Shown here piece by piece: positions 3,093-55,886 of a DNA stretch of 64,000 bases. The notes under the pieces were generated by a model. That model ran no database searches, was not told the origin of the DNA, and was given only the letters and a program-made list of their open reading frames with translations. Position numbers and translations under genes: made by a program. Source of the DNA: Corallococcus exiguus (lineage in GTDB: Bacteria > Myxococcota > Myxococcia > Myxococcales > Myxococcaceae); assembly GCF_009909105.1 (NCBI RefSeq), contig NZ_JAAAPK010000002.1:349827-413826 (forward strand). The letters run 5' to 3'. Position 1 is the first letter of the stretch. Every line of letters begins with the position of its first letter.

Positions 3093-3440
3093 GTGCCTTC
3101 TTTCATGGGTCCCTTCAAGGATGGAGCGAGGGAGCCCGTGAAGATGCGGGTCCTCTTCACCGCCTGGTTTCCGCGCGAGGAGCGACGGTGGCTGGGCGAG
3201 TTCCTCTCACCGGAGCGCTTCGCGTGCGCCTACGTGGGCCTGGAGGAGCCGGTTGACGCGACCCGGAAGCGCCCGCCCGCTCAGAAGACGCACCAGGACA
3301 AGTCGAAGGAGCCGCTGCTGCGGACGCTGAGGCTGCTCGGCAGGATTCTGAAGGCTCAGCTCAGTCCGACCGCGAGGGTAGGGGGGTGCAAGGAATGGCT
3401 CCACTCTCGTGCCCACCTGCCCCGGACCTGGCGGAAATGA
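3093..3440 (+). CDS. Small hypothetical protein (about 100-115 aa)
   Basis: GC3-biased ORF whose stop overlaps the downstream start as ATGA (3437-3440), suggesting translational coupling. No recognisable domain. Confidence 0.3.
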   Translation: MPSFMGPFKDGAREPVKMRVLFTAWFPREERRWLGEFLSPERFACAYVGLEEPVDATRKRPPAQKTHQDKSKEPLLRTLRLLGRILKAQLSPTARVGGCKEWLHSRAHLPRTWRK

Positions 3441-5245
3441 GACTTCTCTGGCCAGGCTCGTGGTTTCCCCCCGTCCAGCCGCTTGGGCCGCGGCGTGATG
3501 ACGACAATCGCCTGCGCTTCGTCGTCCGTGTGGTGGTCATTGCCTCCCTTGCCCTGGCCTTCGCGCGCGGCGTCGTCTTCAAGCGTGTCGAAACAGGTGA
3601 CGAGGGCGTCAATGGCACGATGGCCCTCAACATGTGCCGTTCGCTGGCGCTCGTGGTGCGGCCCTCGTACATCCCTGGTGGCTCGGAGGATTGGGTCGGC
3701 TTCGATCTGCCAGGCATCGGCAACACTCCATTTCACTCGGTGCTCCTCGCACTCGGAGGCTGTCCCCTGGGCGGCCAGCCCGAAGCCATGGGGCTCGTCT
3801 CATTCGCGGCGCTGGTCGCCACCCTCTGCTTCACCTACCGGCTCGTCGCCCTGTGGGAGCGTCGCGCGGCGCTCCTGACGACGCTCCTGCTCGCGCTCTC
3901 TCCTACCGTCCTGTGGCAATTCCGGCTGATGGAGGCCGAGCCTGTCCTCGTGGCGTGGGGCATGGCGGGCACGTACTGGATTGCGCGAGGGGAGCTCACC
4001 GGGAGGAATTGGCACTCCCTGCTGGGTGGCGCATGCCTCGGCCTTGGCTTCTTGACGAAGCTGTGGCTCGTCACCCCCTTCGTGCTGGCTTCGCTAGGGC
4101 TCCTTGCCATCGTGCGTCTCCAGCGGCGTCAATTGGCGCTGGTTCCTGTCGCCTGCCTCACCGTCGGCTTTCTTGCCACGGCGTCCCTCCACCTCGCTTT
4201 CGTTGCTCTGCGGTCACCCACGGATGTCGCCCTCTGGCTCACCCAGGTCTACTTCGCACCCTTCCTGGGGCAGAGCATCGGAGGGTCGAAGCTGGCTGGG
4301 GCGGGCGTGCCCACGGAATGGAGTCATCCCTTCTGGTACTACCCGGCGATCCTCTACCGGGAGCATTTCTTCCTCTGCCCCCTCCTTCTGGCTGCGCTCC
4401 CCGCCTTGAAGCGGCGTGCGCCGACCGCGGCCGGACTCTTCGGCGCCATCGGCTTCGGGCTCGCAAGCCTGGTTCCCCTCTCGCTCCCCGCCATCAAGGA
4501 GTCGCTCTACATCCTGGGCGTCTTGCCATTCCTCTATGGCCTGGCCGGGCTTGGTGCTTCGGCGCTCCTTGCCGGGGAGGGCACCCTCGAACCACGGGGG
4601 GCATCGGGCCGTCGAGCCCTCAGGGTCGCGGGCGTCTTCTCGGCCGCGGCGGTGCTCCTCATCGGGGCGGCTCATGCTCGGGGGCTGAAGCGCGATGACA
4701 TCACGCCTGTCTATGTTGGCGCGCACGCGCTCGGGGTGGGGGGCGCCTGGCTCCTGGCGTATGCGGCGGCTCGCCTCGAGCGCGCGCGAGCGACGGCGCT
4801 CATCGGTGGCCTCTCCGCGCTGGCACTGGCTGGTTTTGGGGCGTACGAGCTCACGGCGCCTCAACCACCGTACAAGGAGATCGCGGAGATCCTTCGCCCC
4901 TATTTGGAACCACTGCCGCCCGGGCATGAGAGCTTCATCTCGCCCCGGTACAAGGTTCTTCAGCTCTACCTGTTTCGCAATGGTCGCTACTGGCAGTCCT
5001 TCTACACGGAGCTCCGGCCGGAGACGCTCGTGGCGAGCATCGCGTCCGGCGAGTACTGCGCCTTCGTCTTCGGCCCGGAGGAGCGTGAAAACCCTCGGCT
5101 CGTGCAGGTGGAGCGGGACATCGCGCTGCAGGCCCTGGACTTGAGCGCGGAGTTGCCGGAGAGCGTACGTGGGGGGTTCCGCGTCTTCGTGAACCGAGCA
5201 TGCGTGCAGGAGGGCGCGAAGGGATTACGCCACGCGGAGGGATGA
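3437..5245 (+). CDS. GT39/ArnT-like (PMT family) membrane glycosyltransferase
   Basis: Multi-TM N-terminal domain with a first-loop DE motif (RVETGDEGVNG) followed by a soluble C-terminal domain. Start chosen at the in-frame Met (MRLLWPG) that is coupled to the upstream ORF. The ORF table starts at 3386. Confidence 0.5.
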   Translation: MRLLWPGSWFPPVQPLGPRRDDDNRLRFVVRVVVIASLALAFARGVVFKRVETGDEGVNGTMALNMCRSLALVVRPSYIPGGSEDWVGFDLPGIGNTPFHSVLLALGGCPLGGQPEAMGLVSFAALVATLCFTYRLVALWERRAALLTTLLLALSPTVLWQFRLMEAEPVLVAWGMAGTYWIARGELTGRNWHSLLGGACLGLGFLTKLWLVTPFVLASLGLLAIVRLQRRQLALVPVACLTVGFLATASLHLAFVALRSPTDVALWLTQVYFAPFLGQSIGGSKLAGAGVPTEWSHPFWYYPAILYREHFFLCPLLLAALPALKRRAPTAAGLFGAIGFGLASLVPLSLPAIKESLYILGVLPFLYGLAGLGASALLAGEGTLEPRGASGRRALRVAGVFSAAAVLLIGAAHARGLKRDDITPVYVGAHALGVGGAWLLAYAAARLERARATALIGGLSALALAGFGAYELTAPQPPYKEIAEILRPYLEPLPPGHESFISPRYKVLQLYLFRNGRYWQSFYTELRPETLVASIASGEYCAFVFGPEERENPRLVQVERDIALQALDLSAELPESVRGGFRVFVNRACVQEGAKGLRHAEG

Positions 5246-5525
5246 CGCCCGCATTCAACGCCGGCTGTCTTCAACGCGCCTTTCCCACCCACGCCACATG
5301 ACCAGCGATCGCTATAGCTGCTCCATGACTGCTCCTGTTGAGTCATGACATGACGTCGAAGCACCACGGCCCGTTCTGGAAAGTCCAGAGCGGGCCGCGG
5401 TAGGTCAAGGGCTGGAAGGTGGCGGCGTGGTTGGCGCTCTGTCCAGCGTCGTCAACGTTCCGGCCGGACCTTCAGTCCGCGCGGGCCTCCGCGCTGCTCA
5501 GGCCCCGGTGCTTCACCCTGCTACA

Positions 5526-5616
5526 GGTGTTCGCCTTGCTCCGGAATTGGTGTTCGGCTTGTCCCGGAGCCGGTGTTCGGCTTGCTCCGGAATCGGTGAT
5601 CGGGATCGTCCGGAGC
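5526..5616. repeat. Intergenic tandem repeat, 4 units of ~22-24 bp (GGTGTTCGGCTTGCTCCGGAAT-like)
   Basis: Seen directly: ggtgttcgccttgctccggaat / tggtgttcggcttgtcccggagcc / ggtgttcggcttgctccggaat / cggtgatcgggatcgtccggagc. Confidence 0.5.
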
Positions 5617-5823
5617 ACGCATCCACCCTGAAGGGATGACGTTGAACCCAGAGGTGTCGCGGGCGCGTGACAGGTGGGCAGAGCCAGGGCGCTTCCTGGG
5701 GCAGGGAGAATTTCATGCGAGGGTGGCCCGGATGCGCGTTAGCCTGGAGTTCGCTTTACCAGCCACATCCCGCGCAACCATCGTTGAGATCCCTGCGCCT
5801 GCTCGGCGCGGAGAGGGAGAACC

Positions 5824-49577: not shown

Positions 49578-50127
49578 GGCTGAAGCCTAACCTCAGGTAG
49601 GCCGCCAGGAGTTCGCCAACAGGGTCCGTGACCCTGTGGTCTCCGCGACGGGGCGCGCCTTGGCGGGGTGCGGCAATGGGGACCGACGGGATGCAGGCGC
49701 GGACGGCGTGGTGAGCCCACGAAGAGAGGCGCCCGCCCGGGGCCGGTTACCTCCAAACTTGTCCGACAGTCGGACAGGTTTTCGCCGCATGGGGCCCGGG
49801 GCCGTGCTGGCCCGACGGGTGACGTCGAGTCCATGTCAGACCCCTGTGGTTGGATGGCGATGCTGGGGCGAAGAGGGGATGGGGATGGTGCGAGTGGGGA
49901 GCGTGGTGGATGTGGGGGCGCAGTTCGAGCGCGGGCTTTCGCTGGGGGGACTGACGGCCCGTGCGCGATTCGGATCGGAAGCGAAGCTGGCGCGGGGCAT
50001 GGTGGTGCAGCGCCCCAGGCGCACGCCGCGCGCGGTGACCGTGGATGAGCCGTTGATGCTGGAGAAGATGCTTCCTCCCGAGCCTGGCTTCCGCGCCCGG
50101 TTCGTCAACGCGCTACTTGCCACCCAC

Positions 50128-50904
50128 TCAAAGCTTCACACCCACCGTGGTGCGCAGCTGCGTGTCCAGGGCGGGCACTGTCGCGGGCGGCGCGCTGTCG
50201 TAGGTGAGGTTGAAGCCGATGCCCACTGTGACGCGGGGATTGGGTGTCACCGCGAAGATCGTCTCGTTGAGCACGCGCAGGTCGGAGGGACGGGTGACTC
50301 GCGGCTGGATGTAGACCGTCTCCACGAGGTTGATGTTCTCCATCAGCCTTATCCGTCCCAGCAGGTAGCTGGAGACTCGAGGATCCGTGTAGCGGTCTCC
50401 CGCGTCCGGCTCGCCGTCCTTGCGCAGCCGCTCGTGCTCCAGCATCAGCGCCACCCCGAAGGTGAGCCCCAGGCGGTCCTCGTTGAGCAGGATGAAGCGC
50501 GGTCCCGCGCCCAGCAGGATCCGGAGCTGGAGCCGGCGGAACTCGTTGTATTCGTGCTGCGCGAAGATCTCGCCCGACACCGTGTCCGTGAGCTTGCGCC
50601 GGTAGCGCACGTGCTCCAGCACCTGGCTGACGATGCGCTCGCCGCTGGCGAACGAATACTCACCCCGGATGACGCCCAGCCAGACGTCACGCTCGGAGCG
50701 CAGCTGGCCCACCAGGGAGCCCCGAATGGAGAACAGCTCCGTGCTGCCCGTGCGCCAGTCGCCGCCCAACTCGATGGCCGCGGCCGGCCCCGGCTCCGCC
50801 TTCTCGTCGAAGAGCGCCTGCACGTTGACGATCTGTGCCGCCGCGCCGCTCGCGTGGAGCAACACCACCAGCACCACCCACCCACCCGACTTCAGGAGAT
50901 TCAT
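50128..50904 (-). CDS. DUF481-like outer-membrane beta-barrel protein
   Basis: Signal peptide, alternating amphipathic beta-strand pattern, and the aromatic-rich character of DUF481. Confidence 0.5.
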   Translation of the reverse strand: MNLLKSGGWVVLVVLLHASGAAAQIVNVQALFDEKAEPGPAAAIELGGDWRTGSTELFSIRGSLVGQLRSERDVWLGVIRGEYSFASGERIVSQVLEHVRYRRKLTDTVSGEIFAQHEYNEFRRLQLRILLGAGPRFILLNEDRLGLTFGVALMLEHERLRKDGEPDAGDRYTDPRVSSYLLGRIRLMENINLVETVYIQPRVTRPSDLRVLNETIFAVTPNPRVTVGIGFNLTYDSAPPATVPALDTQLRTTVGVKL

Positions 50905-51048
50905 GCACCCTTGCTGTGCCTACTCTGGCGCTCCCGTTCAACCCTGTTGTGGGGGCTCCGGTGCGTCGGTCCAGCGCTTGACGCCAACGGTCCAGGCGGA
51001 GCATGCCTGCGCTGTTTCCCAGGCCCTTGCCCTGTCCGGAGTCCGCCC

Positions 51049-51936
51049 ATGCAGGTTCACATCATCGATGCCTTCACCCGCACCGCCGGTGCGGGAAATC
51101 GCGCGGGCGTGGTGCTCGACGCCTCGGCGCTGGATGTCCCCACGATGCAGCGGACCGCCGCGGCCGTCAGCGCGTCGGAGACCGCGTTCCTGCTGTCCCG
51201 GCCCGGCGACGCCACCGTGCGCCTGCGCTACTTCACGCCCGTGGATGAGATTCCGTTCTGCGGCCACGCCACGGTGGCCACCTTCCATCTGCTCGCGGAG
51301 AAGGAACTCCTGCGAAGCCCGGGGACGTACACGCTGGAGTGCCCCGGCGGCACGTTCGGCATCGAGCTGGAGCCCCAGGGCACGCGTGGGACTCGGGTGT
51401 GGATCGCCACGCCCCCGCCTCCCGCGCAGCCCAACCCCGTGGCCCTGGACGCGCTGCTGGCCACGTTGGGCGGGACCGCGTCGCAGGTGGACCCGTCACT
51501 GCCGGTGATCCGCCAGGGCCACCGGTTGGTGGTGCCCCTCCGGCGGCTCGCGGACCTGGAGGCCCTGACGCCGCGAGGCGCGGCGATGAACGCGCTGCTG
51601 ATGCCGCACGGCTTGCGCGGCGTCTACCTCTTCACCCGCGAAGCGAAGGAAGAGGGGAGCGTTGCCCAGGCGCGCTACTTCGTCCCGGGCTTCGGCATCC
51701 TGGAGGACCCCGTGACGGGCTCCGCCGCGGGACCGCTCGCGGCTTACCTCGCCGAGCACGGGAGCCTTCGCCTGCCGGAGCACGGCGGCACGGTGTCGAG
51801 TCGCATCGAACAGGGCGACACGATTGGCAAGCCGGGTCGCATCGACATCCAGGTCACCGGCCGACCAGGCCACATCGAGCGCGCCCGCGTCGGTGGAGTG
51901 GCCCTCTCCGTGATGGACGCCACGCTGCTCGCATAG
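51049..51936 (+). CDS. PhzF-family (phenazine-biosynthesis-like) isomerase
   Basis: MQVHIIDAFTRTAGAGNRAGVVLDA...FCGHATVATFH PhzF signature. It is the in-frame C-terminal portion of the tabulated ORF 49636..51936. Confidence 0.7.
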   Translation: MQVHIIDAFTRTAGAGNRAGVVLDASALDVPTMQRTAAAVSASETAFLLSRPGDATVRLRYFTPVDEIPFCGHATVATFHLLAEKELLRSPGTYTLECPGGTFGIELEPQGTRGTRVWIATPPPPAQPNPVALDALLATLGGTASQVDPSLPVIRQGHRLVVPLRRLADLEALTPRGAAMNALLMPHGLRGVYLFTREAKEEGSVAQARYFVPGFGILEDPVTGSAAGPLAAYLAEHGSLRLPEHGGTVSSRIEQGDTIGKPGRIDIQVTGRPGHIERARVGGVALSVMDATLLA

Positions 51937-52090
51937 CGAGGCTCACGTGCATGACGGACCGCGGGGCCGGGCCCCTTGATGGCCTCGCCGCGCACCTCCA
52001 GGTTCGAGGTTGGGATGATTCCATCCCCGCTTGAGTGACCGGTGCGGTCCGGCGGCCAGGCGGCAGCCGGCTCCACCGGGGGAGGACGTC

Positions 52091-52759
52091 ATGGCAACCG
52101 ATAACAGGAACCCAGGCGCGCAGGGGGGGCCCTCCTCCTCGCCTGTCATGAAGAACGCCCAGGCCGAGGTGCCGAGCGCCACGTCGCCGGGACAGGACCC
52201 GAGGACAGGCGCTGGCATCAGCCGCCGCGAGTCGCAGGCACCGGCCATCGGCAGGGAAGCCGCGCCCGCGAGTCCGTTCGGGCTGCTGCGCCGGATGATG
52301 GAGGACATGGACCAGCTCGTCTCCGGCTTCGGAGGCCGGGGCCTCACCGCTCGGAGCGGCCTGCTGGACGAGGGCCTCTGGTCACCGCAGGTGGATGTGC
52401 TGGAGCGGAACGGGAACCTCATCGTGAAGGCCGACCTGCCAGGAATGCGGCGGGAGGACATCCACGTCGAGGTGCTGAAGGACCTGCTCATCATCGAAGG
52501 CGAACGCTCCTTCGAACTGGAGGAGGAAGAGGAGGCCGAGGGCATCTGGAGCCTGGAGCGCAGCACCGGTCAGTTCCGCCGCGTCATCCCGCTCCCGGAA
52601 GGCATCGACACGGAGTCGATCCAGGCGAACTTCGAGAACGGCGTCCTGGAGGTCTCCCTGCGGCTTCCGGGGGAGCTGCCCCAGGGCAAGCGCATCGAGG
52701 TGAAGGGAGGCTCGCGCGAGCAGGCCCGGCGGATGACGCGCGGCAAGCCCATCCACTGA
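52091..52759 (+). CDS. Hsp20/alpha-crystallin small heat-shock protein
   Basis: Alpha-crystallin domain (WSPQVDVLERNGNLIVKADLPGMRREDIHVEV...FRRVIPLPEGIDTESIQANFENGVLEV). Confidence 0.8.
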   Translation: MATDNRNPGAQGGPSSSPVMKNAQAEVPSATSPGQDPRTGAGISRRESQAPAIGREAAPASPFGLLRRMMEDMDQLVSGFGGRGLTARSGLLDEGLWSPQVDVLERNGNLIVKADLPGMRREDIHVEVLKDLLIIEGERSFELEEEEEAEGIWSLERSTGQFRRVIPLPEGIDTESIQANFENGVLEVSLRLPGELPQGKRIEVKGGSREQARRMTRGKPIH

Positions 52760-52775: not shown

Positions 52776-53471
52776 TCAATGCGTGTGCCGGCGGCCCTCG
52801 TCTTCCACGACGGCCGCCGCCACCTTCTCCGCCGAGTCACGCAGCTCCGCTTCGGGCGGCGAGTGCCAGGACTCGAAGGCGAACAGCTTCCGCATCAGCT
52901 TCCCGGCCTGATAGCCGGGGCGCAGTTCGATGGCGTCGAACATCCAGGACAGCGCTTCGTCCGCGAAGGTGTACCAGGACTCCTCGCAGCCCGTGGCGTC
53001 CATGGTGAGGTTCATCGTGGTGACGAGTCCATCCGCCAGCGCCAGCGTCCGGATGTCATTGTCGCCGGGGCCGGACGGCAGGTCCCGCTTCAGCGCCTGG
53101 AAGTGGGCATCCAGCTTGAACAGCCATTCGCGCGACTGCTCCAGCGCGTTGATGATGAGCTGGATGTTGTATTCCACGCCCATGTTCGGGGTGGGCTTCT
53201 GTCTGAAGAAACGGTGGCACCAGCAGTAGCCGCCGAAGCTCTCATTGCCCAGATACAGACCCGTCTCCGTGTACCAGGGCCCCAGGTTCTGGTTGAGCAT
53301 CCGCTGGATGTGCTTCGCCATCGTGTCGTGCTGCTCGTCCGTGAGCTTGCGTGTCCCCGGGGGCACGCGCGGCGCCAGGTATTCGCGCAGCAGCCGGATG
53401 AGCTTCTCCGGCTCATACCCGTCCAGGCTGTCTCGGATGAGCAGCCAGTGCCCCAGCGCCGAACGGCTCAT
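52776..53471 (-). CDS. Unknown-family protein, paralogue 2 of 2 (LGNExxGGYCWCHxFF motif)
   Basis: 231 aa. About 40% identical to the upstream paralogue. The ATG overlaps the upstream stop (ATGA). Confidence 0.5.
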   Translation of the reverse strand: MSRSALGHWLLIRDSLDGYEPEKLIRLLREYLAPRVPPGTRKLTDEQHDTMAKHIQRMLNQNLGPWYTETGLYLGNESFGGYCWCHRFFRQKPTPNMGVEYNIQLIINALEQSREWLFKLDAHFQALKRDLPSGPGDNDIRTLALADGLVTTMNLTMDATGCEESWYTFADEALSWMFDAIELRPGYQAGKLMRKLFAFESWHSPPEAELRDSAEKVAAAVVEDEGRRHTH

Positions 53472-54133
53472 ACGGCCACCTCCGCCACCCGCGCCGCGGC
53501 GTCCCGGAGGACCTCCGGAGGAGGCGCAATCCAGGACGTGAAGACGAAGGCCGTGTCCAACTGCTCCTGGGTGGCATCCGACAAGGGCAGTCCCATCGCC
53601 TCGATGCACCACGACATGGCGTCCTGCGCGACCTGGTACCAGGTCTCCTCGCAGGACGTCGTCTCCGCCGTCAGGTCCACGGTCCGCACCAGCCCTTCCG
53701 CGAGCGCCTTCGCCCGGAGAGCCTTGTCGTCGGCCGCCAACTCGAGCTGACGGCGCGCGGCCTGATACACGCCGTCCAGCGCGTACAGAAACGAACGGAT
53801 CCGCTCCAGCGCCTCCAGCATGAGCTGGATGTTCGCATCCACGTCCATCGTCCGATGCGGCGGGTTCTGGTTGAAGAACGAGTGACACCAGCAATAGCCC
53901 CCCAGCACTTCATTGCCCAGGGGCAGGCCGCTCTCGATGTACCAGGGCCCCAGCTCGGCCTGGAGCAGGTCCTTCACGGCGTTCTGCGCCTGCTTGAGCC
54001 GGCTTGCGTGGATGCTTCCGGACCGAAGGGGGGCCAAGGCCTCCCTCAGCCGGGACGCCAGCGATTGCGGTGCGTAGGCATCCAGGCTGTCGCGGATGCG
54101 GCGCCACGTGAAAGCCGAAGCGTCACTGCTCAT
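53468..54133 (-). CDS. Unknown-family protein, paralogue 1 of 2 (LGNExxGGYCWCHxFF motif)
   Basis: 221 aa. The ATG overlaps the Fic stop by 4 nt. Confidence 0.5.
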   Translation of the reverse strand: MSSDASAFTWRRIRDSLDAYAPQSLASRLREALAPLRSGSIHASRLKQAQNAVKDLLQAELGPWYIESGLPLGNEVLGGYCWCHSFFNQNPPHRTMDVDANIQLMLEALERIRSFLYALDGVYQAARRQLELAADDKALRAKALAEGLVRTVDLTAETTSCEETWYQVAQDAMSWCIEAMGLPLSDATQEQLDTAFVFTSWIAPPPEVLRDAAARVAEVAV

Positions 54134-54867
54134 TCGGGCACCTCGTTGGGGCACGGGGCGTCCGGCCCCGCGATGGTCCGGGCCAGCAGCCTTGCCAGCC
54201 GTGTGTAGTTCACCGCGTCTCCCGGACGCTTGGGCCACAGCACCACGGGCGCCAACGGTGGCGTGGGCAGCCGGCCCCGGCGCAGCATGTATTCCAGCCA
54301 CAGCCGCGCCGCGCGGGCGTTGCCGTCCGGGAAGGGGTGGAAGAAACACAGGTCCAGGTACAATCGCGTGGCATGCGCCACTGGATGACGCTCTTCCCTC
54401 GCGTCCGCTTCCACCTTGGCGCGGAAGGCCGCCTCCAGGCCGGGCGCTTGCGCATAGCGGTGCGCGCCTCCCCGCGCGAAGGCGTCCCCGGTGCGGAAGC
54501 CCGTGGGCGCGCCCAGGAGCTCCGACTGGACCTCCACCATCCGGGCGAAGGTCAGCGGCTCGCCCAGGTCCGCGAGCCGCCGCACCCGGTCCAGGGCCCG
54601 TTCGAAGCGCTCCTTCCGCGCAGGGCCCTGGGCTTCATGGGCCGGTGCGTCATGACGGTGCAGGAAGTCCTCCTGGGCCCCTGTCTCCCGGAAGGGCTGT
54701 CGCGCCGCCGCCGCCAGGTCCGCCCGGAGCGTGGGCAGCGCCCAGTCCAGGGCGCGCGTGGCCTCCCGGTGGGGCGCGAGTTGCTCGGTGGGGGACGGGG
54801 TTTTCACTCGGGGGCTGGGACGAAATAGGGGGGCGGAGAGCCCCGCATGGACGGGGCCGGGTGACAA
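54130..54867 (-). CDS. Fic/Doc-family protein (putative AMP- or phosphocholine-transferase)
   Basis: Fic active-site motif FHPFPDGNARAARL (HPFx[DE]GN[GA]RxxR). No obvious (S/T)xxxE(G/N) auto-inhibitory motif found by eye. Confidence 0.6.
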   Translation of the reverse strand: MSPGPVHAGLSAPLFRPSPRVKTPSPTEQLAPHREATRALDWALPTLRADLAAAARQPFRETGAQEDFLHRHDAPAHEAQGPARKERFERALDRVRRLADLGEPLTFARMVEVQSELLGAPTGFRTGDAFARGGAHRYAQAPGLEAAFRAKVEADAREERHPVAHATRLYLDLCFFHPFPDGNARAARLWLEYMLRRGRLPTPPLAPVVLWPKRPGDAVNYTRLARLLARTIAGPDAPCPNEVPE

Positions 54868-54965
54868 ACACCCCGGGCGATGAGGCCCTCCCGTGGGTCA
54901 CGGAGTGGAGCCTGGGCTCACAATTGCGTAAACAGGCCGTTCTCGCAGCAGGGAGAAGGCACTGA

Positions 54966-55886
54966 ATGAAGACGTTCCTCGTGGTCAACCCGCGCAGCGC
55001 CAACGGGCAGACGGGGAAGCGATGGGTGGAGATCTCCGCGCAGGTGGGCAAGGTGCTCGGTGACTTCGGGTACGGCTTCACCAGCGGCGGCATGGATGCG
55101 GCGCGTCTGGCGCGGCAGGCCATCGATGATGGCTATGAGTGCATCGTCGCGGTGGGCGGCGACGGCACCCTCAACGAGGTCACCAACGGCTTCTTCCGCG
55201 ACGGGCAGGTCATCAACCCCCGGGCCACGCTGGGCCTGTTGCCCCGAGGCACGGGCGGCGACTTCCGCCGCACCTTCGGGTGGGACCTGGAGCTGACATC
55301 CGCGCTGGAGCGGCTGCGCACGGAGACGACCGAGCCCTTCGACGTGGGGCGGCTGGAGTTCACCGACAACGACGGCAAGCCGGCCACGCGCTTCTTCGCC
55401 AACATCGCCTCGCTCGGCGTGAGCGCGGTGGTGGCCCGCGAGGTGAACCAGGGCAGCAAGGCGCTGGGCGGCAACCTGAGCTTCATGTGGGGCACCGTGA
55501 AGGGCCTCATCAAGTACCAGGAGCAGCAGGTGCGCCTCACGGTGGACGGCGGTGAGCCGGAGACGGTGAGCGTCACCGCGGTGGCCGTGGCCAACGGCCG
55601 CTACTTCGGCAGCGGCATGTTCGTGGCGCCCGAAGCGGTGACGCACGACGGCCTCTTCGACGTCACCATCTGGTCCAACTACGGCCTGTCCGACTTCGTC
55701 CTCAAGTCCAAGGGCGTCTACAACGGCGACCACGTCACCTGGAAGGGCACGCGGCGGCTGCGCTGCCGCACGATCCACGCCGAGCCGCTGACGGGCGACG
55801 TGTTCCTGGACGTGGACGGCGAGACGCCGGGTCGGCTGCCCTGCACCATGACGCTGTTGCCGGGCGCCATCCGCCTCAAGGTGTAG
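54966..55886 (+). CDS. Diacylglycerol-kinase catalytic domain lipid kinase (YegS/BmrU-like)
   Basis: ECIVAVGGDGTLNEV (GGDG motif) and overall DAGK_cat architecture. Confidence 0.7.
   Translation: MKTFLVVNPRSANGQTGKRWVEISAQVGKVLGDFGYGFTSGGMDAARLARQAIDDGYECIVAVGGDGTLNEVTNGFFRDGQVINPRATLGLLPRGTGGDFRRTFGWDLELTSALERLRTETTEPFDVGRLEFTDNDGKPATRFFANIASLGVSAVVAREVNQGSKALGGNLSFMWGTVKGLIKYQEQQVRLTVDGGEPETVSVTAVAVANGRYFGSGMFVAPEAVTHDGLFDVTIWSNYGLSDFVLKSKGVYNGDHVTWKGTRRLRCRTIHAEPLTGDVFLDVDGETPGRLPCTMTLLPGAIRLKV

Follow-up and report, generated by a model that had tools for sequence, protein, structure and literature searches.

The operon and its proteins

This study concerns an operon in a 64,000-nucleotide stretch of high-GC DNA from Corallococcus exiguus (the window, by which we mean that whole stretch), in which a gene for a Fic-domain protein is followed by two genes for companion proteins, ParA and ParB (Table 1). 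A first-pass annotation, made from the sequence alone, had described three genes overlapping by ATGA at each junction, and the complement 'tcat' is read on the plus strand at both sites. The two paralogues of about 225 residues that it reported are likewise present (221 and 231 residues; 44% identity over 215 residues, E 1e-61), with the common motif LGPWY..GL.LGNE..GGYCWCH.FF, and the genes for a small heat shock protein (Hsp20) and a lipid kinase flank the operon as it said. The 245-residue length given there for the Fic protein is that of the mechanical open reading frame (ORF). We favor the GTG codon at 54807 as the probable start, because orthologues are annotated at 225 residues and conservation begins at VKTPSPTEQ. 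All three genes are under purifying selection, as judged from the ratios of nonsynonymous to synonymous substitution (dN/dS) against Corallococcus orthologues (Fic, 0.19-0.33; ParA, 0.29-0.43; ParB, 0.14-0.40).

Table 1. Positions in the window of the operon, its sequence motifs, and the flanking genes
Feature	Position	Strand	Remarks
Fic gene	54130..54807	-	Probable 225-aa product, GTG start at 54807
Fic mechanical ORF	54130..54867	-	245 aa, TTG start at 54867
Fic active-site motif HPFPDGNARAAR	54304..54339	-	H177-R188 in 245-aa numbering
ParA	53468..54133	-	221 aa, companion-domain protein, lineage-specific extra copy
ParA motif C81-W-C-H-S	53879..53893	-	Conserved Cys/His cluster
ParA motif T159-S-C-E-E163-T-W-Y	53636..53659	-	Loop leading into helix (H137-159 / H165-179)
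ParB	52776..53471	-	231 aa, companion-domain protein, orthologue of single-copy partner in related genera
ParB motif C83-W-C-H86	53214..53225	-	Invariant alignment columns
ParB motif T160-G-C-E-E164-S-W-Y	52971..52994	-	Equivalent to ParA T159..Y166; invariant alignment columns T160, C162, E164, W166
ATGA overlap, Fic stop/ParA start	54130..54133	-	Translational coupling
ATGA overlap, ParA stop/ParB start	53468..53471	-	
Divergent intergenic (5') region	54808..54965		Common to operon and lipid-kinase gene
Hsp20 gene	52031..52759	+	Flanking
DAGK_cat/YegS_C lipid-kinase gene	54966..55886	+	Flanking

The Fic assignment itself stands: Pfam Fic (PF02661) matches the window protein with 36.8 bits against a cutoff of 24 (E 7.5e-9), and a beta-hairpin flap precedes the active-site helices, as in the Fic fold. 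By a profile search of the PDB, the closest solved relatives in sequence are FICD/HYPE (E 7e-10), with BtFic, NmFic, and IbpA also found. Canonical Fic enzymes that transfer adenosine monophosphate (AMP) carry the motif HxFx(D/E)GNGRxxR, and deviating motifs can mean other activities (PMC3667792). The window motif, HPFPDGN-A-RAAR, departs from this signature at one position: it keeps the catalytic His, the Asp, the Asn, and the first and second arginines, R(1) and R(2), but has Ala for the second Gly of GNGR, G(2). The substitution is typical of the clade to which the protein belongs, where GNAR occurs in 143 of 158 unique sequences, GNGR in 10, and GNSR in 3. This clade shows little or no variation at H, D, N, and R(1), and its extended signature, YLD[VIL]CFFHPFxDGN[A/S/G]RxARL, is common to the window Fic and to the fusion proteins described below.

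A genome scan with the Fic alignment placed this DGNAR-type clade (HPFxDGN-A-R) in at least 521 species genomes, from phyla that include Myxococcota, Actinomycetota (Streptomyces, Micromonospora, Actinoplanes, and others), Planctomycetota, and Cyanobacteria; literature searches on the clade or the companion in Streptomyces or Myxococcus returned nothing relevant. Of the 157 clade Fic domains in which the motif could be read, 117 have Arg at R(2). The others, mostly from Actinomycetota, have M, F, L, A, or E at this position. The Actinomycetota loci in which R(2) is replaced by Met, Phe, Leu, or Ala while H, D, N, and R(1) are kept are L030, L041, L048, L051-L057, L061-L062, L066, L068-L071, L075-L079, L081-L082, L084, and L087-L088, and the replacement may reflect altered nucleotide binding or a different reaction.

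The statement that the Fic protein has no recognizable inhibitory glutamate motif also proved accurate. An intrinsic (S/T)xxxE(G/N) inhibitory helix is missing from the clade, as only 4 of 158 members match the motif, and these do so at no consistent column. One candidate in the window protein, the class II-like sequence TGAQED, was rejected, being not conserved in the clade; its E66 aligns with an Arg in the fusions.

Neither ParA nor ParB had a significant match among the Pfam, NCBIfam, or PADLOC models (5,027 models in PADLOC). A Pfam scan of 50 diverse members of their family gave only three scattered single matches (E > 1e-3), word-indexed searches with the two proteins returned Myxococcaceae "hypothetical proteins" only, and no solved fold matched a model of ParA. 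A PDB sequence profile search suggested RecA, an identity that we rejected: only artificial RecA multimers were matched, and the single RecA C-domain gave an E of 0.28, as expected of summed weak chance matches. The companion domain is thus undescribed: Pfam-A (2025 copy), NCBIfam 20, PADLOC, the PDB, and the searchable literature do not contain it. Where the first-pass annotation had asked whether the paralogues belong to a known enzyme family and whether the gene unit recurs, no family was matched, and the unit of Fic and partner is conserved elsewhere.

We define the family as an all-alpha domain of about 220 residues with four motifs, GxW, C-x(1-3)-H-S, TxxxD/E-(A/S)-W-Y, and FxSWxxP; ParA and ParB carry all four. 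Across 260 unique domains, the most conserved positions in ParA numbering are W165 (99%), W64 (98%), S200 (98%), F198 (97%), P204 (97%), and W201 (96%), followed by C81 (90%), H84 (77%, with Asp in a further 13%), the acid at position 163 (88%), Y166 (88%), and T159 (85%). The Cys/His cluster takes the form CxCHS in myxobacterial and stand-alone companions and WCCxxHS in fusions. An AlphaFold2 model of ParA is all-alpha (predicted local distance difference test score [pLDDT], 85.4; predicted template modeling score [pTM], 0.85), and S200 of FxSW lies in a predicted loop between helices.

The conserved Cys, Ser, Asp/Glu, and His/Asp (90% combined at the last position) could form a catalytic or metal site, so that the companion might be an independent enzyme, such as a metal enzyme or a hydrolase erasing the modification made by Fic. 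Adjacent writer and eraser genes are known from Legionella, where AnkX and Lem3 form such a pair. We nevertheless regard this explanation as improbable here, since the spacing of one to three residues between Cys and His is more in keeping with metal binding than with a catalytic dyad and no hydrolase-like fold was found.

Pairing of the companion with Fic across genomes

Companion clusters numbered 229 at an E of ≤1e-3, 70 of them at an E of ≤1e-10, in an exhaustive profile search covering 1.84 billion representative proteins. Among the 150 clusters listed, about 100 are stand-alone proteins of 200 to 260 residues, and 26 are fusions of 374 to 550 residues (mostly 410 to 470) with the companion at the N terminus and a Pfam Fic domain at the C terminus. 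The window Fic aligns over its whole length with the C-terminal half of these fusions, including the N-terminal DxLxxH...DW segment. An AlphaFold2 model of a natural 419-residue fusion (pLDDT, 92.1; pTM, 0.84) indicates a confident, compact two-domain arrangement in which the helix after TxxxE/D spans residues 154 to 168. A nearly invariant Asp-Gly-His occurs in the fusions at the start of the helix that leads up to the Fic core, 110 residues N terminal to the catalytic His (e.g., residues 248-250 of protein P0190); at the same position the window Fic has Gly-Ala-Gln.

We examined the linkage of the two domains from both sides. Starting from Fic, hidden Markov model searches of the best 80 loci among the at least 521 species genomes found the companion fused, adjacent, or nearby in 74 of the 75 testable loci. 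The two domains form one ORF in 31 loci, the partner gene immediately precedes Fic in 25 and follows it in 15, the genes are merely nearby in 2, and 1 locus has a tandem double fusion; of the remainder, 5 were untestable (Fic at a contig edge) and 1 had no companion. Starting from the companion, we searched metagenomes with a DNA pattern derived from the companion motifs alone (T-x3-DAWY-x32-FxSW). This gave 62 loci, of which 42 encoded a true companion domain, and Fic was fused or adjacent in 38 of the 39 that could be tested. Because the linkage holds from either domain, the companion and Fic are near-obligate partners in both directions, and their commonest arrangement is a single companion-Fic protein. 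The large, duplicated, downstream partners pointed out by the first-pass annotation are therefore a local trait and not a general rule, the usual form being a single fusion or partner-then-Fic.

Individual loci depart from simple pairing in several ways. A companion gene stands without a clade Fic in a 9.9-kb locus (L093:4758-5531), and a Rubripirellula Fic stands without a companion in 8.6 kb (L024:3935-4579); both are exceptions to the pairing. On a contig of a metagenome-assembled genome (MAG), two companion-Fic fusion ORFs lie in tandem (L026:3218-5777, with ORFs at 3218-4474 and 4458-5777), i.e., the whole module is duplicated. Two companion genes lie upstream of one Fic in a Micromonospora sp. 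(L041:2324-4621), a duplication that is independent of the one in Corallococcus and has the opposite gene order.

The stand-alone companions also vary in length. P0104, P0115, P0116, and P0119 have an N-terminal extension starting M(S/A)DERLRELERRWR, and P0117 has a different one of about 100 residues. P0122 (529 residues) combines the companion domain with about 300 residues of C-terminal sequence, similar long forms being P0124, P0141, and P0145. The P0122 gene lies directly downstream, with a 4-nucleotide overlap, of a clade Fic gene whose product contains HPFCDGNARAAR (L151:2-2820), and a HEPN/NTP_transf_2 pair adjoins it. We also looked for a recurrent third neighbor gene, as a candidate target, by BLAST clustering of flanking ORFs; this crude test gave only Myxococcaceae synteny and spurious clusters of high-GC ORFs.

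Fic-then-partner is the order typical of Myxococcaceae. In Citreicoccus/JPH2, Pyxidicoccus, and Hyalangium, Fic is followed by a single partner and the pair is divergent from the lipid-kinase gene; the same chromosomal site by the DAGK_cat gene is occupied in Corallococcus, in these genera, and in a MAG. The single partner of Citreicoccus/JPH2 shares 53 to 54% identity with ParB, which every Corallococcus locus examined contains. By a neighbor-joining tree, ParA is the additional copy: it occurs in C. interemptor, C. exercitus, the window strain, and one MAG but not in C. sicarius, C. praedator, or C. sp. RDP092CA. In Myxococcaceae, the ancestral unit is Fic with one ParB-type partner. The unit of Fic plus two genes, for which a search in other genomes had been suggested, is conserved as Fic and partner, while its second copy is confined to some Corallococcus and one MAG.

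Since the unit keeps the same site by the lipid-kinase gene in four genera, its inheritance appears to be vertical, which is more in line with a regulatory enzyme than with a mobile toxin/immunity cassette. A classical toxin-antitoxin or antiphage cassette, in which labile antitoxins would release the Fic toxin on stress or infection, could be argued from the tight translational coupling, from matches of the Fic protein to the PADLOC systems PDC-S24 (E 6.7e-8), PDC-S04, and SoFic, and from the HEPN/nucleotidyltransferase pair at L151. The PADLOC matches, however, span the Fic core only, and the paralogues match nothing. The conserved site divergent from the DAGK-like kinase gene also speaks against mobility, as does the fact that the commonest form would be a fusion of "toxin" and "antitoxin." Moreover, the partner has no DNA-binding domain and no mobile-element genes adjoin the operon, so we consider such a cassette very improbable.

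As to the surroundings of the operon, the divergent region between Fic and the lipid-kinase gene presumably holds the operon promoter; no sigma-70 consensus or sigma-70-like promoter was found in it, and terminator-like matches there were weak. Between the TTG and GTG codons, at 54830-54844 on the minus strand, is a terminator-like GC hairpin with a T-rich tail after it; if GTG is the true start, the hairpin falls in the 5' leader of Fic. Farther away, a 766-residue mechanical ORF occupies 49636-51936 on the plus strand. Its last ~290 residues, from MQVHIIDAFTRT, resemble a separate real gene, and its long N-terminal part, which overlaps a DUF481 gene on the opposite strand (50128-50904), is probably a high-GC artifact. 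Among the proteins encoded in the window, one has a 100% identical counterpart in Corallococcus sp. CA041A.

A candidate inhibitory acid and its covariation with R(2)

Ninety percent of canonical Fic proteins are held inactive by the glutamate of an (S/T)xxxE(G/N) helix, which is supplied by a small upstream antitoxin (class I) or by the Fic chain itself (classes II and III), and in all three classes this glutamate outcompetes the gamma-phosphate of ATP for R(2) (PMC3667792). In the companions, T-x-x-x-D/E precedes the invariant W-Y at a helix start, and the acid is Glu in both window copies (TSCEET and TGCEES). In the models, this placement resembles that of the canonical inhibitory motif, and we regard E163 of ParA (E164 of ParB) as a candidate inhibitory glutamate. 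The match is not a strict one: Thr and Glu are present in ParA and ParB, but the last position is T or S. The strict motif occurs anywhere in 17 of 260 companions, and [ST]xxx[DE][ASGT]W occurs in 185 of 260.

We compared the state of this acid with that of R(2) in 96 Fic/companion pairs. Partners of R(2)-bearing Fic proteins keep the acid in 65 of 66 cases, and those of R(2)-less ones (M/F/L) do so in 17 of 34. Counted by locus, it is kept or lost in 61 and 1 R(2)-bearing loci versus 17 and 17 R(2)-less loci (P = 1e-8 by a Fisher test that ignores phylogeny). Other hallmarks stay conserved in both groups, and in the R(2)-less one S200, F198, and W165 are each present in 34 of 34 and C81 is present in 30 of 34. 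Fitch parsimony on a neighbor-joining tree gave about three changes of R(2) state and eight of acid state, seven of the latter among the 34 R(2)-less tips and one among the 62 R(2)-bearing tips. This pattern is suggestive of an acid that is constrained only while R(2) exists, as a pairing of the inhibitory glutamate with R(2) predicts. Of the roles proposed for the paralogues in the first-pass annotation (immunity proteins, substrates, or chaperones), the functional tie to Fic is upheld in general, and the covariation lends specific support to an inhibitor or regulator.

A different function for the conserved hydroxyl residues was also considered. The companion could be a substrate or automodification module, with AMP attached to the Ser of FxSW or the Tyr of WY, as NmFic modifies itself near its inhibitory helix. 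The high conservation of S200, Y166, and T159 and the loop position predicted for S200 would agree with this, and Fic enzymes do modify Ser, Thr, and Tyr hydroxyls, autoadenylylation being common (PMC3667792). A permanent 1:1 fusion of an enzyme to its sole substrate would be unusual, however, and covariation with R(2) is not predicted. Furthermore, real Fic targets dock by strand addition to the flap (PMC3667792), while the fusion model has no beta-pairing between the FxSW loop (residues 185-195) and the flap hairpin (residues 310-319), a weak comparison based on DSSP only. We regard a substrate role as rather improbable.

Our preferred explanation, for and against which the chances seem to us evenly balanced, is that the operon encodes a two-component Fic enzyme with an inhibitory companion whose acid pairs with R(2). 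The Fic subunit would be the catalytic one, probably a nucleotidyl (AMP) transferase, and the dedicated companion of about 220 residues, of which two diverged copies exist here, would bind it 1:1. The companion would provide the regulation, primarily inhibition, for which the Fic chain of this clade has no module of its own, acting in trans in the window and in cis in the fusions. E163 of ParA or E164 of ParB, at the helix start, would reach into the active site and pair with R(2) (R188), keeping ATP in a nonproductive pose as the inhibitory glutamate does in Fic classes I to III. The Cys/His cluster (CWCH) may, by pure conjecture, be a metal or redox site that relieves the inhibition.

The same complex may also run the reverse, de-AMPylating reaction. 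The inhibitory glutamate is reported to drive de-AMPylation as well in FICD-type enzymes (10.1101/323253), and the Fic-antitoxin complex Fic-1/AntF is described as one that can act as a deAMPylase (PDB 8wt0). Because of these two precedents, the complex could be an eraser as well as a writer.

Several points weigh against an inhibitory companion of this kind. The proposed contact of the acid with R(2) is derived from sequence covariation, which owes most of its signal to one large clade (mostly Actinomycetota) with about three R(2) changes. The residue after the acid is A, S, or T and not the canonical G or N, most family members have Asp and not Glu, and the Thr is missing in one companion subfamily (LGIHDSWY). 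The Asp-Gly of the fusions could be the true intramolecular inhibitor or a second regulatory acid; its spacing is in the range of that of the class II Glu-Gly (about 125-129 residues). The change of G(2) to Ala and the fact that a quarter of the clade has lost R(2) might point to chemistry other than AMPylation. Finally, a 220-residue domain with near-invariant Trp, Ser, and Cys far exceeds the needs of an inhibitory helix and probably has an extra role.

The size of the domain is also what an adaptor would explain. The companion might bind Fic and recruit its target, presenting the substrate or localizing the enzyme while leaving the active site unblocked, with the two paralogues providing two specificities. 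Obligate fusion or adjacency suits this equally well, and so do the extra regions on some companions (the N-terminal extensions and the ~300-residue C-terminal extension of the P0122 type directly downstream of a clade Fic) and the independent duplication of the partner in Corallococcus and Micromonospora (L041). Yet an adaptor leaves unexplained why one acid is released from constraint exactly upon R(2) loss and how a Fic protein without an inhibitory helix stays in check, and, in the crude test above, no third gene recurred across phyla as a candidate target. On these grounds we think an adaptor role unlikely.

Extending the inhibitory companion beyond this operon, we tentatively raise the possibility, which for now we find more doubtful than the pairing itself, of a fourth mode of Fic control. 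Here, a Cys/His sensor domain of about 220 residues, separate or fused, would supply the inhibitory acid to R(2), and a redox or metal signal would switch a widespread Fic clade (Myxococcota, Actinomycetota including Streptomyces, Planctomycetota, and Cyanobacteria) between modifying and demodifying a housekeeping target. Around one in ten canonical Fic enzymes belongs to none of the three known inhibition classes, and their control is an open question (PMC3667792). For a large clade, represented in at least 521 species that include Streptomyces and other well-studied soil bacteria, the locus offers one answer. It provides experimenters with a defined residue pair to mutate, the companion acid and the ATP-binding arginine of Fic to which it appears tied, and with naturally split (Myxococcaceae) and fused versions to compare. 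The Cys/His cluster is a candidate input signal, and the companion domain might merit a protein-family database entry of its own. What is new here, we infer, is the control of Fic by a partner-supplied acid delivered via an undescribed domain.

Comparison with known Fic systems

Several known systems resemble the operon in part. AnkX and Lem3 are alike in that a Fic-fold modifier is encoded beside a protein acting on the same modification; here, however, there is no sign of a hydrolase fold or of secretion, and the pair is often a single polypeptide. The PADLOC candidate defense systems PDC-S24 and PDC-S04, and SoFic, share weak similarity in the Fic core (E 6.7e-8 to 1e-4), whereas the companions match 0 of 5,027 models and the setting is a conserved core-genome site rather than a defense island.

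Class II Fic proteins (SoFic, BtFic BT_2513, and FICD/HYPE) are the nearest in sequence, with FICD closest. They share the beta-hairpin flap, and their regulatory element is N terminal to the Fic core, as in the fusion relatives. Unlike class II and III proteins, members of this clade do not carry the intramolecular (S/T)xxxE(G/N) in the Fic polypeptide. Only 172 to 205 of 419 fusion residues align with class II proteins, and none of the solved Fic structures contains a counterpart of the 220-residue N-terminal domain.

The closest parallel in operation is class I FicTA (VbhT/VbhA, EcFicT/EcFicA, and Fic-1/AntF), in which a Fic protein without its own inhibitory helix has a separate, translationally coupled partner. 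As in that class, the partner has Thr-x-x-x-Glu at a helix start, and the covariation of its acid with R(2), the target of the class I glutamate, is suggestive of a similar pairing. The differences are nonetheless considerable. The window partners have 221 and 231 residues and belong to a non-Pfam family, while VbhA is small and encoded upstream (PMC3667792). They are also downstream and duplicated, and their relatives show all orders as well as fusion, most lineages being fused. T or S follows the Glu in place of G or N, the Fic motif has GNAR in place of GNGR, and the locus is chromosomal and syntenic across genera. The system thus seems to work most like class I FicTA yet lacks its defining features, the small upstream antitoxin and the strict (S/T)xxxE(G/N), and the companion is best read, in functional terms, as a very large relative of FicA.

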